Assembly (NCBI GenBank): GCA_014191855.1
Contig: BJHF01000027.1
Span: 488 to 64,487 of the forward strand
Length of the DNA: 64,000 nucleotides
DNA from: Deltaproteobacteria bacterium
GTDB lineage: Bacteria > Myxococcota_A > UBA796 > SXON01
Direction of reading: 5' to 3'
Both the position numbers and the translations under genes were made by a program. Positions 35,714 to 40,457 of the stretch are shown here, piece after piece. The notes beneath the pieces were generated by a model that did not search any database, was not told the origin of the DNA, and saw only the letters and a program-made list of their open reading frames with translations. Numbering within the stretch: the stretch's first letter is position 1; each line of letters begins with the position of its first letter.

Positions 35714-37360
35714 TTGGGTGTGCCCCTCGATCGTGTACGTCGCGTCGTCTTCGCCCTCGGGGTGGCGCTGGTGGCGTTTTGCCGGGTCTGGCTGCCGTCT
35801 GGCGCAACGACGGTGGTAGGGCGGCCGGAGGGCGAGCTCCGCGATCACCTTTGGCTATCCTGGGTATTCGCCCGGGAGCTCTGGGATCGCCATGCCCTTC
35901 CGCTCCACACGAAGCTCGCGGCGTTCCCCGATGGCCTGAGCGTCTACCCGCTCGACCCGCTCCACCAGGCGGCGATTGCGATGCTTGAACCGGCGATCGG
36001 CGTCGTCGCCGCCGTGAACGTCGTGGCCTTCTTGCTCTTCGCCGTGCTCGTGTACGGCGGCCAGAAGCTCGCGTCTTCTGCCGGCGCCGGAGTGCGCGCG
36101 GAGTTGGCGTGTGGCGCGCTCGCAGCCATCTCCCCGGCGTTTCTCGGCGCGTTTACGGATACCCAGACGGAGGGCATGGCGTCGGGGTGGCTGCTTTTGC
36201 TGCTCGCCGAGCTGTTCTCCGACTCCCCTCGTGCCGGTCGCGCGGCGCTGTGGGGCTGCGTGCTGCTCGCCACGGGGCCGTACATGGCCCATGGCGTAGC
36301 CCTCGTGTGCGTGCTTGCCTGGGTCGTTCGCCGTTTCCCGCTGCGGGCGAGCCTGCCGGTCATCGCTACCGCGCTCCTGCTCGGGAGCACCCTTTGGACC
36401 ACCGAAGCCGGGGCCGGGGGAGCGCTCACCGCCCGAGCGTCCCAGCTCACGAGCGCCACCCGCCCCCCGCGCTCCACCCCCCTTGGCGTCGAGGCGCCCC
36501 CTCCCCTGCCCGACGATGGCGTGGTCCGGCACGCTGCGAGCTACCCCGGTGCCGCCGAGACCGGCCCCCGCCGCGCGGCGCCGTGGCTGTTCGTGGCGTT
36601 GTTCCTATTTTCAGCTCGGGATCGGCGCGCCCGAATTCCGGCCGCCCTCGCCCTCGCGTACGCCGCCGTCGCCGCCGGAAATCGCTTCGGCGGCAACGGC
36701 GAACCCGTCGCGTTCCTCACGCCCTACGAAGCCTTCTGGCGGTGGATGCCGTTCGCGAAGTACGCTTGGAAGCCGGCGCAGTACGCGGTTCCGGCCACGG
36801 CGTTCGCGCTGTTGGCGGTGGCGCGGGGCTGGCCGCGGGATCCCCGGAGGCCCGGCCTGGCCTGGCTCGCCGGCGCCGTGGCAATCGCCGCGGTTCTGGA
36901 AGCGACGCTTCGGGAACCCACCCCGCTCCCCCTCCCCGCAAGCACGCTGCATCCCCGGGAAGCGTGGTCCCACCTGCCCCCCGGGGGTGGCGCCGTCATC
37001 GAATTCCCCTGTCGCGACCGTAGTGTGCCGGGTCACCCGCCCGTCGCGGACGTGCTGCTGGGGCCGCTGTGGCACGGCCGCGCGCTGGGGGAGACGCCGA
37101 ACCGCGGAGCGGAGGGGGTACACGCCATGGTGTTGGCCAGCCTGGAGGGGGCGATCACGGGGCATCCGTCGCGAAAGGCGCGGCCGCTCGGGGCGGCGTT
37201 GTGGGAGGCCAGCGAGGCCGGGTTTACGGAGCTGCTCATCCTCGGCAACGTACTCGGGCCGGAAGCGACGGCACGGCTGAAGACGGCGCTGATCGAGGCG
37301 AGCGTGGGGCTGCCGGAGGCGGATGGGGAGGGGGTGATTGTGGTAGCTATTCGTCGGTAA
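35714..37360 (+). CDS. polytopic membrane protein of unknown function (possibly GT-C-like)
   Basis: 548-aa ORF with about 10 hydrophobic helices in the first 400 aa and a soluble C-terminal domain. The start appears to be TTG/GTG and is uncertain. Confidence 0.6.
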   Translation: MGVPLDRVRRVVFALGVALVAFCRVWLPSGATTVVGRPEGELRDHLWLSWVFARELWDRHALPLHTKLAAFPDGLSVYPLDPLHQAAIAMLEPAIGVVAAVNVVAFLLFAVLVYGGQKLASSAGAGVRAELACGALAAISPAFLGAFTDTQTEGMASGWLLLLLAELFSDSPRAGRAALWGCVLLATGPYMAHGVALVCVLAWVVRRFPLRASLPVIATALLLGSTLWTTEAGAGGALTARASQLTSATRPPRSTPLGVEAPPPLPDDGVVRHAASYPGAAETGPRRAAPWLFVALFLFSARDRRARIPAALALAYAAVAAGNRFGGNGEPVAFLTPYEAFWRWMPFAKYAWKPAQYAVPATAFALLAVARGWPRDPRRPGLAWLAGAVAIAAVLEATLREPTPLPLPASTLHPREAWSHLPPGGGAVIEFPCRDRSVPGHPPVADVLLGPLWHGRALGETPNRGAEGVHAMVLASLEGAITGHPSRKARPLGAALWEASEAGFTELLILGNVLGPEATARLKTALIEASVGLPEADGEGVIVVAIRR

Positions 37361-37790: not shown

Positions 37791-38441
37791 TCACCCCCCC
37801 AGCGCTAACTTCGCCGCGTTCAGCCACCCATCCATGGCTGCGAGGATCGGCCCGAAGGGATCGAGGCCCACAACGCGCAGCCCAACAATCACGACAAAGG
37901 GCAAAAACCTCCCAAACGACTCCAACTGGCCCCACGCCATCTGCGCCGCGCGGGGCAGTACGAAGTTCACGATGCGACTGCCATCCAGCGGCGGGATGGG
38001 CAGCAAGTTGAACACCGCCAACAGCACGTTGAGTTGGATCGCGTAGCGCGCCAGGCCCCCGAGCGGCCCCTGCTCGAATGAAGGAAACACCACCGACAAC
38101 GCCAACCACGCCGTGAAACCCGCACCCGCAAGCACCACGTTGGAGAGCGGCCCCGCCGCCGCGGTGACCATCATGCCAAACGCCATGCTGCGCCGACGAT
38201 CAAAGCGCGACGGATCGATGGGAACCGGCAGCGCCCAACCGAAGGGTACCCCCAACAGCGGAAACAACACAGTCCCCACCGGATCGGCGTGGGCCAGCGG
38301 ATCGAGGGTCATTCGACCCTGGGCCCGGGCCGTGTCGTCCCCCAACGCAAACGCGGCGCGCGCGTGGGCCCACTCGTGCACGCTCAACGAGAGCCACAAC
38401 ACAACCACGTTGGGGATGCGCTCCAATAGGAAGTCGAGCAC
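37791..38441 (-). CDS. site-2 protease family (peptidase M50) membrane metalloprotease
   Basis: LSVHEWAHARAA (HExxH) and NLLPIPPLDGSRI (NxxPxxxLDG). GTG at 38441 directly follows the upstream TGA, with GGAGGG 5 nt upstream. Confidence 0.88.
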   Translation of the reverse strand: MLDFLLERIPNVVVLWLSLSVHEWAHARAAFALGDDTARAQGRMTLDPLAHADPVGTVLFPLLGVPFGWALPVPIDPSRFDRRRSMAFGMMVTAAAGPLSNVVLAGAGFTAWLALSVVFPSFEQGPLGGLARYAIQLNVLLAVFNLLPIPPLDGSRIVNFVLPRAAQMAWGQLESFGRFLPFVVIVGLRVVGLDPFGPILAAMDGWLNAAKLALGG

Positions 38442-39677
38442 TCATCCCTCCGGGGGGCTCACCGCGATGATCTGGCGTACTTCGCGGCGATTGATGAGAC
38501 GCGCGGCGCCTTCCGTGGGCTGCACCTTCAACAGCTCGGCGTTCGCCCACATCACCCGGCCGGCCACAGTCACGCCCGTGACCAGCTCCAGCTCCGCGAA
38601 CGCCGCGCTGCTCGGCTCCGCGAGCTGGCTCGCCGACTCCACGAGGAGCTGGTCGAGCACCCCAAACGGCCGTTCGATGGAGATCGCCTTCTCCAGTACC
38701 GCGAGCAGGTCGCCCTGTCCGAGCTGCGCGCTGCCGCCGGCTCGGCCCCGCCGCATCGCGACCATCGCCGCGTCGTTTACAAGGGCTTCGAGCACCGCCC
38801 CCGAGGCGCCATCCATTGCGCGGGCGAAGTAGGGAAAGTCGACGTCTGCGGCGAGATCTCGCCCGCGCGCGTGCACCGCCAGCACCTCCATCCGGTCCCC
38901 CTCCGTCAGCTCGCCCACCCGCACCCGAATGTCGAAGCGGCCCGGACGCAGCAGGGCACCGTCGAGCACGTCCGCCCGGTTGCTGGCCGCGATTACCACG
39001 AAGCGGCCCTGCTTCTCAAAACCGTCCATCTGCACGAGCAGCTCGTTGAGCGCGTGCTCCCGCTCCTCGTTCGCGTGGCCGACGCCCGAGCCGCGCCGAC
39101 GACCGATCGCGTCCAACTCGTCGATGAACACCACGCAAGGGGTGTTTTTGGAGGCGGCCTCGAACAGATCCCGCATCCGCGCGGGCCCGACGCCGATGAA
39201 CATCTCAACGAACTCGGTGGCGCTCGCGACGAAGAACTTCACGCCGGCTTCGCCCGCAACCGCGCGCGCAAGCAGCGTCTTCCCCGTTCCCGGCGGGCCC
39301 TCCAAAAGCACCCCGCGCGGCGGCCGTACCTTCGCTTTGTCCCATCGTTCGGGCGCTTTGAGCCAGTCCACCACATCCCCGAGCACGAGCTTCGCCTCGG
39401 TGAGGCCTCCCACATCCGTGAACCGGGTACCCTCCGATCCAGGCTGCAGCAACCGCGCTTTGTTCTGTCGGAACGCCGCCATACCGCCCATCTGGTTCGC
39501 CTGCTGGCGCCGCCCCCACCACACCAGCGCGAGGCCCATGGCCACGACCACGACGACGACGAGCACCAGCGTACGAAGCGGCCCCTCGACGTCGCCAATC
39601 TGAACGGCCAACAACGAGGAGCAGGCGATGAGCGCGAGCGCCAGCCAGACGAGCGCGGTGCGGAGCTTGGGGTTCAC
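38442..39677 (-). CDS. FtsH-like membrane-anchored AAA+ ATPase lacking the M41 peptidase domain
   Basis: Two N-terminal TM helices. FtsH-type AAA module: VGGLTEAK, GPPGTGKTLLARAVAGEAGVKFF, VVFIDELDAIGRRRG (Walker B), ASNRADVLDGALLRPGRFD (SRH). No HEXXH follows. Instead there is a short approximately 90-aa C-terminal tail. Confidence 0.88.
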   Translation of the reverse strand: MNPKLRTALVWLALALIACSSLLAVQIGDVEGPLRTLVLVVVVVVAMGLALVWWGRRQQANQMGGMAAFRQNKARLLQPGSEGTRFTDVGGLTEAKLVLGDVVDWLKAPERWDKAKVRPPRGVLLEGPPGTGKTLLARAVAGEAGVKFFVASATEFVEMFIGVGPARMRDLFEAASKNTPCVVFIDELDAIGRRRGSGVGHANEEREHALNELLVQMDGFEKQGRFVVIAASNRADVLDGALLRPGRFDIRVRVGELTEGDRMEVLAVHARGRDLAADVDFPYFARAMDGASGAVLEALVNDAAMVAMRRGRAGGSAQLGQGDLLAVLEKAISIERPFGVLDQLLVESASQLAEPSSAAFAELELVTGVTVAGRVMWANAELLKVQPTEGAARLINRREVRQIIAVSPPEG

Positions 39678-39709: not shown

Positions 39710-40405
39710 TCACCCGTTGGCGAACGCCCACGCCTCACGGATCGCCTCGCGCCCGCCGGCCGCCAGCACGTCGCCGTGCGAAACCACCACCGCCTCCGCG
39801 TCCCAGGCCTCCACCATCCGGGTGACGCTCCGGCCCGCCGCGCGCGCATCCTGGATGTACTGGGACTTTCCGATGCGCGTCATGCAGAATCGATCGTTCG
39901 CACCGTTGAGCCACATCGCGAAGCGGTTGAAGCCGGTCATGCCGTGAAGGTTGAACGCGAGATCCACCGCCAGCACGGTGCGCGACGCCGGGAAGAACAA
40001 CACGTGCTCCTCAAGCTTCGGACAGCCTTCCAGCTTGATCATCTCCACAACCCCGGCGAGCGAGTCGGGCACCTGCTCACCCAGCGTTTCGGCCACGCGC
40101 AACGTCGGCTCCTTCTCGGCGATCCCCGCAACCGCGATCACGCGCGCATCGGGGAAGGCACCCGCGGCTGCGACGCAAAAGAGGTGGTGCATCCGGTTCG
40201 GGATCACGATGGTCGACACCTGCCCGAGCCCCCGGATCGCGGCGATCTGATCCGCCTGCAGCGGCCCCGGCGCATGGAGCGCCAGCGAACCATCGGCGAG
40301 GGCGAACACGTTGGTGCGGGTGCCGATCCCGAGGCCGCCGACCGCGAATTCAGGGTGGTGAATCGTCCAGATGCCAGGGGCGACGGCGACGAGCGGCGCA
40401 GACAT
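39710..40405 (-). CDS. DUF4336-like (MBL-fold-related) protein
   Basis: The start at ATG 40405 gives MSAPLVAVAPGIWTI. The pattern ...IVIPNRMHHLF...VLFFPASRTVLAVDLAFN... resembles DUF4336. Divergent from a MarR gene. Confidence 0.7.
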   Translation of the reverse strand: MSAPLVAVAPGIWTIHHPEFAVGGLGIGTRTNVFALADGSLALHAPGPLQADQIAAIRGLGQVSTIVIPNRMHHLFCVAAAGAFPDARVIAVAGIAEKEPTLRVAETLGEQVPDSLAGVVEMIKLEGCPKLEEHVLFFPASRTVLAVDLAFNLHGMTGFNRFAMWLNGANDRFCMTRIGKSQYIQDARAAGRSVTRMVEAWDAEAVVVSHGDVLAAGGREAIREAWAFANG

Positions 40406-40406
40406 G

Positions 40407-40457
40407 TTGACTCCGTGAGTGCCCAGATGGTAAACTGCCTTGACCAACTCGTCAAGG
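40407..40457 (+). promoter_or_regulatory. sigma-70-type promoter plus palindromic operator upstream of the MarR gene
   Basis: TTGACT (40407-12), an 18-nt spacer, then TAAACT (40431-36). A perfect inverted repeat CCTTGAC-N6-GTCAAGG lies at 40438-40457, just upstream of the ATG at 40468. Confidence 0.5.

Follow-up and report, generated by a model that had tools for sequence, protein, structure and literature searches.

An FtsH-derived ATPase with an Hfq-like tail, encoded beside an M50 protease, suggests an undescribed ATP-driven machine for membrane-protein cleavage

Two adjacent genes in a 64,000-nucleotide stretch of DNA from a Deltaproteobacteria bacterium (contig BJHF01000027.1 of assembly GCA_014191855.1, positions 488 to 64,487; the whole stretch is referred to here as the window) suggest an undescribed ATP-driven machine that cleaves membrane proteins. 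The first gene encodes a membrane-anchored AAA+ ATPase derived from FtsH that has a predicted Hfq/Sm-like domain in place of the M41 peptidase, and the second encodes a zinc metalloprotease of the M50, or site-2 protease (S2P), family. Pairs of this kind occur in dozens of uncultured bacteria. We tentatively propose, at slightly less than an even chance, that they constitute a conserved two-gene module in which an ATP-driven extractase cooperates with an intramembrane protease to extract and cleave membrane proteins. Proteases of the S2P/M50 type are generally regarded as energy-independent, and the question on which the pair bears is what delivers and unwinds their substrates and removes the resulting fragments. 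The pair is built from known parts and the combination is new; a search of the full-text literature, incomplete in its coverage, returned no published account of an operon of an AAA ATPase and an M50 protease or of an Hfq-tailed FtsH homologue.

The ATPase has the general layout of FtsH. Hydropathy peaks at residues ~7-25 and 34-52, together with helices at residues 3-26 and 33-70 of the full-length AlphaFold2 (AF2) model (predicted local distance difference test, pLDDT = 80), indicate two transmembrane (TM) helices with only ~10 residues between them. The Pfam models AAA (E=9e-42) and AAA_lid_3 provided the only above-threshold matches. The best Foldseek matches of the model were the AAA domains of FtsH proteins at 45-53% identity, with PDB entry 8xku among the top matches, and the AAA module is 45-55% identical to that of canonical FtsH. 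The NCBIfam profile FtsH_fam (TIGR01241) aligns at profile positions 111-387 of 598 only, which places the M41 half outside the protein, and the scores lie below the cut-offs for both TIGR01241 (350.4 bits against 600) and PRK10733 (268.7 bits against 1008). No match to PF01434 (M41) was obtained when the ATPase was searched against Pfam, and a tblastn search of the window in all frames with 13 canonical FtsH M41 domains detected no M41 remnant at E<=1e-3; within the gene pair, the sole weak match falls on the HExxH helix encoded by the M50 gene.

The place of the M41 domain is taken by a tail of ~75 aa, a helix and a barrel within the ~100 residues that follow the lid, which is predicted to adopt an Hfq/Sm-like fold. 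An AF2 model of the tail by itself (pLDDT 84) has a helix at residues 6-16 followed by five strands, and most of the barrel has a pLDDT of 85-92 in the full-length model. When the tail model was submitted to Foldseek, all of the top 50 PDB matches were Hfq proteins (probability 1.00, TM-score 0.6-0.7). The Pfam model Hfq_1 (PF21979) matched 18 of 18 tails with a best E of 1.5e-5; the window tail, at 22 bits, falls short of the cut-off of 27. The tail profile matched Anabaena Hfq (structure 3hfn) at E=8.5e-5 and, more weakly, Caulobacter Hfq (E=0.027) and an LSM protein. The helix, the five-stranded Sm fold and the Sm1-like motif of the tail (G-x-[IV]-x-W-[AV]-[DNT]) have their counterparts in cyanobacterial-type Hfq (3hfn, 3hfo).

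This tail is conserved in all 32 sequences of a full-length ATPase alignment (A1, with homologues 45-92% identical), where D342, S348, P355, G373, W377 and K384 are invariant. It stands at the C-terminus of 113 of the 120 best homologues, none of which has an M41 domain; the seven tail-less proteins are six of the CDC48 type and the product of a decayed gene, P0120, which is described below. The tail profile gave 128 matches among 1.84 billion representative proteins, nearly all of them C-terminal in proteins 410-540 aa long or located on gene fragments, and on the basis of this small number the domain appears to be essentially specific to the Hfq-tailed ATPase architecture. The profile also matched the long proteins P0312 (1849 aa), P0350 (2728 aa), P0321, P0333 and P0338 in 4-12 tandem stretches; these resemble repeat proteins of similar beta-hairpin units and are unrelated to the ATPase in architecture.

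To place the ATPase relative to FtsH, a neighbour-joining tree of the 240-residue AAA core was calculated for 23 Hfq-tailed ATPases and 30 canonical FtsH proteins with 200 bootstraps. The canonical reference set, which also served for the M41 search, came from the loci of a genome-contig scan with alignment A1, which caught generic AAA motifs and returned only canonical FtsH of all phyla. The Hfq-tailed ATPases split from canonical FtsH in all 200 bootstraps, and the mean identity of the core is 66% among them and 55% against FtsH. By these comparisons the ATPase is a conserved, protease-less derivative of FtsH, and its AAA core forms a clade of its own. Two periplasmic forms were seen among 108 full-length relatives, a long one in 82 (~495 aa, with an FtsH_ext-like insert of ~70 aa) and a short one in 26; the window ATPase is of the short form and has no such insert. 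A family-specific motif, [KR]-L-[RK]-T-x-x-[IV]-W-x-x-L, marks the start of the first TM helix (window 39647-39671, residues 3-11). It occurs in its strict form in 56 of the 108 relatives and in looser versions in most of the rest, and to our knowledge it is absent from Escherichia coli FtsH. In public databases these proteins go under 'AAA family ATPase', 'hypothetical protein' or the incorrect 'cell division protease FtsH'. Bacillus subtilis YjoB, a candidate for the nearest FtsH-like ATPase without a protease domain, was rejected as a close relative, since it is soluble, has a Bcs1-like N-terminal domain and lacks the Sm tail.

The product of the second gene matched PF02163 with 46.4 bits (cut-off 27.2). 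Its HEWAH sequence falls inside the first of about five hydrophobic segments in the hydropathy profile, and NLLPIPPLDG conforms to the NxxPxxxLDG motif, in which Asp is the third zinc ligand. Pfam assigned neither PDZ nor CBS accessory domains to the protein. The closest solved structure to this core-only enzyme is that of the group III protease MJ0392 (mjS2P, 3b4r), which it resembles weakly by sequence (E=0.046). Judged by its motifs, it is a bona fide minimal-type member of the M50/site-2-protease family and a predicted intramembrane protease.

The junction between the two genes reads ...CCG GAG GGA TGA GTG CTC, with the Shine-Dalgarno sequence GGAGGG 4 nt 5' of the GTG start (Table 1). In the window the TGA of the ATPase abuts the GTG of the M50 gene and both are in one reading frame, so that readthrough of the TGA would yield a 628-aa fusion. 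This exact in-frame abutment is particular to the window lineage and is not conserved, as the genes of relatives overlap by 1 or 4 nt or are separated by short gaps in other frames. Both ORFs are genuine genes, with best homologues in a protein database search at E=1e-242 (ATPase) and 1e-135 (M50). The exact ATPase is deposited at NCBI as GDX80407.1, 'hypothetical protein LBMAG42_22180', and the M50 protein as 'peptidase'; the GC content of the window is 68%. Both ORFs lie on the minus strand, exactly where a preliminary description of the window had placed the pair (37791-39677); it had also read the TGA directly before the GTG, with the GGAGGG embedded in the last codons of the ATPase gene. 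It had further recognised the FtsH layout of the ATPase (two N-terminal TM helices, an AAA module with Walker A, Walker B and the second region of homology), the lack of an HEXXH M41 domain, and a 216-aa site-2 protease with HEWAH and NLLPIPPLDG, all of which the hydropathy, model, profile and motif analyses bear out. The short tail it had noted is indeed short but is more than a leftover: the structure and profile comparisons it had suggested gave the Hfq-like fold, which it had not recognised.

The gene pairing was surveyed at 52 loci that encode Hfq-tailed ATPases, comprising the window, ten loci from individual protein look-ups and 41 metagenome contigs retrieved with a tail-specific peptide pattern from a trimmed 8-sequence tail alignment. 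Pairing was scored with our own hidden Markov models for the M50 protein and for the tail. At 47 of the 52 loci the ATPase gene is followed immediately by an M50 gene in the same orientation, and the pairing persists after redundancy was collapsed (36 of 40 clusters at 90% tail identity and 26 of 29 at 70%). The median distance from ATPase stop to M50 start is ~8 bp over 44 loci, 11 of which have genes that overlap or abut. The AAA identity among complete pairs goes down to ~45%, whole-protein identity to the window ranges from 43 to 93%, and the genes that flank the pair vary between lineages; no third conserved gene that might encode a substrate or adaptor was found around it beyond closely related loci. 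The catalytic residues of both proteins are invariant in 28 complete pairs with one conservative exception. In the ATPases the Walker A Lys, the Walker B DE, the sensor-1 Asn and the Arg fingers are unchanged and the pore-loop F-V-G is kept apart from a Phe to Tyr replacement in one of the 28, while HEWAH and PPLDG, plus the N and P of the second motif, are invariant in all 28 M50 partners. This invariance indicates that both partners are under selection as active enzymes. The pairwise-identity matrices of the ATPases and M50 proteins correlate at r=0.87, a value reached in 0 of 2000 Mantel permutations, and the two genes are co-inherited.

In the extract-and-cleave module that we propose, the ATPase would be tethered beneath the inner membrane by its two TM helices and would hexamerise. 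Hfq proteins are hexameric rings, and six of the C-terminal Sm-like domains may assemble into a ring that stabilises the hexamer at its base in place of the lost M41 ring. The conserved pore-loop Phe would grip cytoplasmic tails or loops of membrane proteins for ATP-driven pulling, and the M50 protease, with its active site in the bilayer near the cytoplasmic face, would cut the TM segment. Cleavage could either precede extraction as a licensing step or coincide with unwinding of the helix, and the cleaved fragments would be dislocated into the cytoplasm. Here we infer the hexamer and its Sm ring, the contact with the M50 protease, the substrate class and the order of events. A bolder form of the proposal would make the pair the first ATP-dependent intramembrane protease of bacteria: a hexameric motor, closed at its base by an Hfq-like ring, would dock one or more M50 subunits in or beside its TM cage and mechanically unwind transmembrane helices into the M50 active site; this we consider doubtful.

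Comparison with known systems helps to define what is distinctive in the pair. The ATPase shares with FtsH the two-TM N-terminal anchor (with an FtsH_ext-like periplasmic domain in most Hfq-tailed relatives), the AAA module with its pore-loop Phe and second region of homology, and the best structural matches. It differs in carrying an Hfq/Sm-like domain where FtsH has M41, in falling below the TIGR01241 cut-off and into a separate clade, and in having a zinc peptidase of another family, M50, in the next gene. FtsH combines a motor with a zinc peptidase, and the proposed module would keep this division of labour but place the peptidase in the membrane, as a subunit of its own. On the bolder form of the proposal, the motor-plus-peptidase design of FtsH would have been re-invented with the peptidase inside the bilayer. 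At this locus an FtsH lineage has dropped its own peptidase and acquired an Hfq-like domain, an architecture new to FtsH proteins as well as to the Sm/Hfq superfamily, and it hints that Sm rings can act as hexamer platforms for AAA+ motors.

Other FtsH-derived, non-proteolytic AAA subunits are the protease-dead FtsHi proteins, which together with Ycf2 are thought to form a membrane pulling motor (PMC9020784); PDB entry 8xku, among the top Foldseek matches of the ATPase model, belongs to this motor. FtsHi proteins mostly keep a dead M41 domain, whereas in the window ATPase M41 has been deleted and replaced; they are also eukaryotic-organellar and have neither an M50 partner nor an Sm-like domain. 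A cyanobacterial-type Hfq is known to bind at the membrane to a separate ATPase, PilB1 (PMC4390875), while in the window the Sm-like domain is fused to the C-terminus of the AAA+ protein. The proposed logic is closest to that of RHBDL4, which works together with p97 in membrane protein degradation (PMC9437926), the intramembrane protease cutting and the AAA+ ATPase extracting the fragments. RHBDL4 is a serine rhomboid and M50 a zinc protease, p97 is soluble and recruited through a binding motif, the two systems have no evolutionary relationship, and coupling in the window pair is inferred. If that coupling is real, a co-encoded membrane-anchored AAA+ motor would offer a testable bacterial model of energy-coupled intramembrane proteolysis, as a counterpart of RHBDL4-p97. 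The S2P pathways of RseP and SpoIVFB use an M50 core with HExxH and LDG motifs and cleave on the cytoplasmic side, as expected for the window enzyme, and tie ATP-dependent steps to S2P cleavage; unlike in the window pair, the ATPase in these pathways does not resemble FtsH, has no membrane anchor and is encoded outside the operon of the protease. The authors of an RseP study propose that the protease unwinds helical substrates (PMC11864173).

Several observations weigh against an extract-and-cleave module. No M50 gene neighbours the ATPase at four of the 52 loci: L089, L090, L091 and L137 (Pirellulales). Close M50 orthologues without an adjacent ATPase are present in Archangium (L131; 54% identical to the window M50) and in Pirellulales (L136; 52% identical to the window M50 and up to 67% to M50 proteins of paired loci). 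By identity these unpaired proteins nest among paired ones, and the close homologues P0139 and P0203 are paired with an ATPase, so that the operon is strongly but not universally maintained. The pairing that the preliminary description had put forward therefore stands as a strong linkage, kept at 47 of 52 loci in varied contexts in the kind of co-occurrence survey it had suggested, but it is broken at L089, L090/L091 and L137 and by the unpaired M50 genes; its impression that the combination had not been characterised agrees with the literature search. None of the 128 representatives with a tail domain proved to be an AAA-M50 fusion that keeps both active sites. A physical interaction between the two proteins, as in the two-component analogue of FtsH that the preliminary description had suggested, is put forward here from gene linkage; in view of the four unlinked loci and the M50 orthologues that have no ATPase beside them, functional coupling is putative. 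In mechanistic terms, an FtsH-type ring moves its substrate away from the membrane, and delivery of a chain to an active site within the membrane is speculative; the Hfq pore may also be too small for an exit channel.

One of the 52 loci (L004) is a decayed deletion-fusion. Its 494-aa ORF, P0120 (L004 5001-6485), is annotated 'cell division protease FtsH' and joins the tail helix of the ATPase (..LDAVLFEATTQLAEPTARAVF) straight to M50 residues ~142-201 (NMLPIPPLDGSR...), the deletion having taken the Sm barrel and the HExxH-bearing two-thirds of the M50 protein. Because the ATPase reading frame passes from the tail helix directly into the final third of M50, the pair is ancestral at this locus. 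A PF02163 match had suggested that P0120 is an AAA-M50 fusion; as a deletion product without HExxH it supplies no Rosetta-stone evidence. Both genes occur in Pirellulales without being linked: the ATPase gene (L137 2877-4367, with CheB downstream) and the M50 gene (L136 3001-3678, between folD-like and L27 genes) come from two different metagenome-assembled genomes.

An alternative that we consider unlikely, though it deserves attention, is that the pair acts as a switch for regulated intramembrane proteolysis, in which the M50 protease frees one specific regulator held at the membrane, for instance an anti-sigma or pro-sigma factor, and the ATPase either gates substrate access with the use of ATP or unfolds the released fragment, like ClpX downstream of RseP. 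Such a role would suit S2P/M50 enzymes, which typically act in signalling, and an external substrate selector is plausible for an M50 protease that has no PDZ or CBS domain. SpoIVFB requires ATP via its CBS domain, and ClpXP completes the breakdown of RseA after RseP. The unpaired M50 gene of Archangium sp. (GCA_047600485.1, L131 2895-4630) follows a sigma-70-family gene of the same strand after 30 bp, a single case that is a possible hint at a sigma-factor-related substrate of the M50 subfamily. This sigma neighbour was seen once, however, in a genome without an adjacent ATPase, and no gene for a sigma- or anti-sigma-like substrate is conserved beside the module in any context. The conservation of pore loop and Arg fingers fits a processive translocase at least as well as it fits a gate.

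The two genes might instead be co-transcribed genes of envelope or membrane proteostasis that act independently, the ATPase as a stand-alone membrane chaperone or dislocase and the M50 protease as a housekeeping peptidase for remnants of signal peptides and small proteins, which we judge about as unlikely as the switch, if not slightly more so. The broken linkage in several lineages, the reach of the M50 subfamily well beyond ATPase-linked genes and the nesting of unpaired among paired M50 proteins are all in keeping with independence, and RseP-type enzymes remove left-over signal peptides and small membrane proteins with no ATPase dedicated to the task. Independence accords poorly with the tight, often overlapping junctions, which persist at AAA identities of ~45% while the surrounding genes all change, and with the single deletion that strikes both genes in P0120. 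The ATPase has lost its peptidase but has kept a complete translocation apparatus, which is easier to explain by a peptidase acting in trans. Even if the genes act independently, the Hfq-tailed ATPases make up a new, widespread and unnamed protein family.

A role of the pair in defence against phages, as an ATPase and protease system comparable to Iet, is very improbable and was rejected. The PADLOC IetA models match the AAA domain at ~100 bits and the NCBIfam model IteA at 97 bits, but this is generic AAA similarity, far under the FtsH score of 350 bits. The M50 protein matches no PADLOC model, the protease partner of Iet is a different kind of enzyme, and a search with the PADLOC models found no IetS-type protease beside the ATPase. 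The surroundings are of a housekeeping nature, with DnaE in the window, ThrRS at the syntenic locus L085 and at L089, and core-genome-like synteny. The least credible reading, which the preliminary description had raised against itself and which we effectively discard, is that the ATPase is a truncated or frameshifted FtsH pseudogene beside the M50 gene by accident: the AAA identity to canonical FtsH and the end of the protein ~100 aa past the lid would suit it, but it is refuted by the absence of an M41 remnant in the tblastn search of the window, the folded tail conserved in nearly all of the best homologues and the separate clade.

Table 1. Features of the ATPase-M50 locus in the window, with related genes at other loci (positions without a locus prefix refer to the window).
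Feature	Position	Strand	Description	Basis
ATPase gene	38442..39677	minus	411-aa FtsH-derived membrane-anchored AAA+ ATPase with predicted Hfq/Sm-like C-terminus, without M41 peptidase	ORF, Pfam, NCBIfam, AF2, Foldseek
TM hairpin of ATPase (aa 3-56)	39510..39671	minus	~10-aa periplasmic loop, short form	AF2, hydropathy
AAA+ module and lid of ATPase (aa 83-313)	38739..39431	minus		Pfam, NCBIfam, motif reading
Walker A of ATPase	39276-39299	minus	GPPGTGKT, aa 127-134	
Pore loop of ATPase	39186-39206	minus	EMFIGVG, aa 158-164	
Walker B of ATPase	39108-39134	minus	VVFIDELDA, aa 182-190	
Second region of homology with Arg fingers of ATPase	38931-38987	minus	ASNRADVLDGALLRPGRFD, aa 231-249	
C-terminal helix and five-stranded barrel of ATPase (aa 335-406)	38460..38675	minus	predicted Hfq/Sm-like, in place of M41 peptidase	
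Translational-coupling junction ATPase/M50	38439..38451	minus		direct reading of sequence
Shine-Dalgarno sequence before M50	38446-38451	minus	GGAGGG	
Stop codon of ATPase	38442-38444	minus	TGA	
Start codon of M50	38439-38441	minus	GTG	
M50 gene	37791..38441	minus	216-aa core-only, predicted intramembrane zinc metalloprotease of the M50/site-2-protease family	PF02163, motifs
HEWAH of M50	38364-38378	minus	aa 22-26	
NLLPIPPLDG of M50	37980-38009	minus	aa 145-154	
DUF4336-like gene upstream of ATPase	39710..40447	minus		weak Pfam DUF4336 match
ECH_1/ECH_2 genes near M50	L088 1-496; L105 4444-4962; L109 3124-3750; L135 514-1350; L131 5056-5823			

In the window, a DUF4336-like gene of the same strand precedes the ATPase start by 32 bp, a layout found again in L085 only, which also has in common with the window the genes for MarR, a dual-specificity phosphatase, a 570-aa membrane protein and DnaE. 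At the 5' end of the DUF4336-like gene, a match to a sigma-70-like promoter (40455->40427) makes a three-gene transcription unit of this gene, the ATPase and the M50 protease possible in the window lineage. The DUF4336-like gene is possibly co-transcribed with the pair in that lineage only and is outside the conserved module. On the other side, a gene for a predicted 548-aa membrane protein without a Pfam match (window 35714-37360, plus strand) and the M50 gene are transcribed towards each other, and a scan of the window detected no terminator-like hairpin between the two. A homologue of this membrane protein holds the same position in L085. A gene of the enoyl-CoA hydratase family (ECH_1/ECH_2) was also observed one to two genes from the M50 gene in five otherwise different loci; its side and strand relative to M50 vary, and in L131 the neighbouring M50 is the unpaired one of Archangium.

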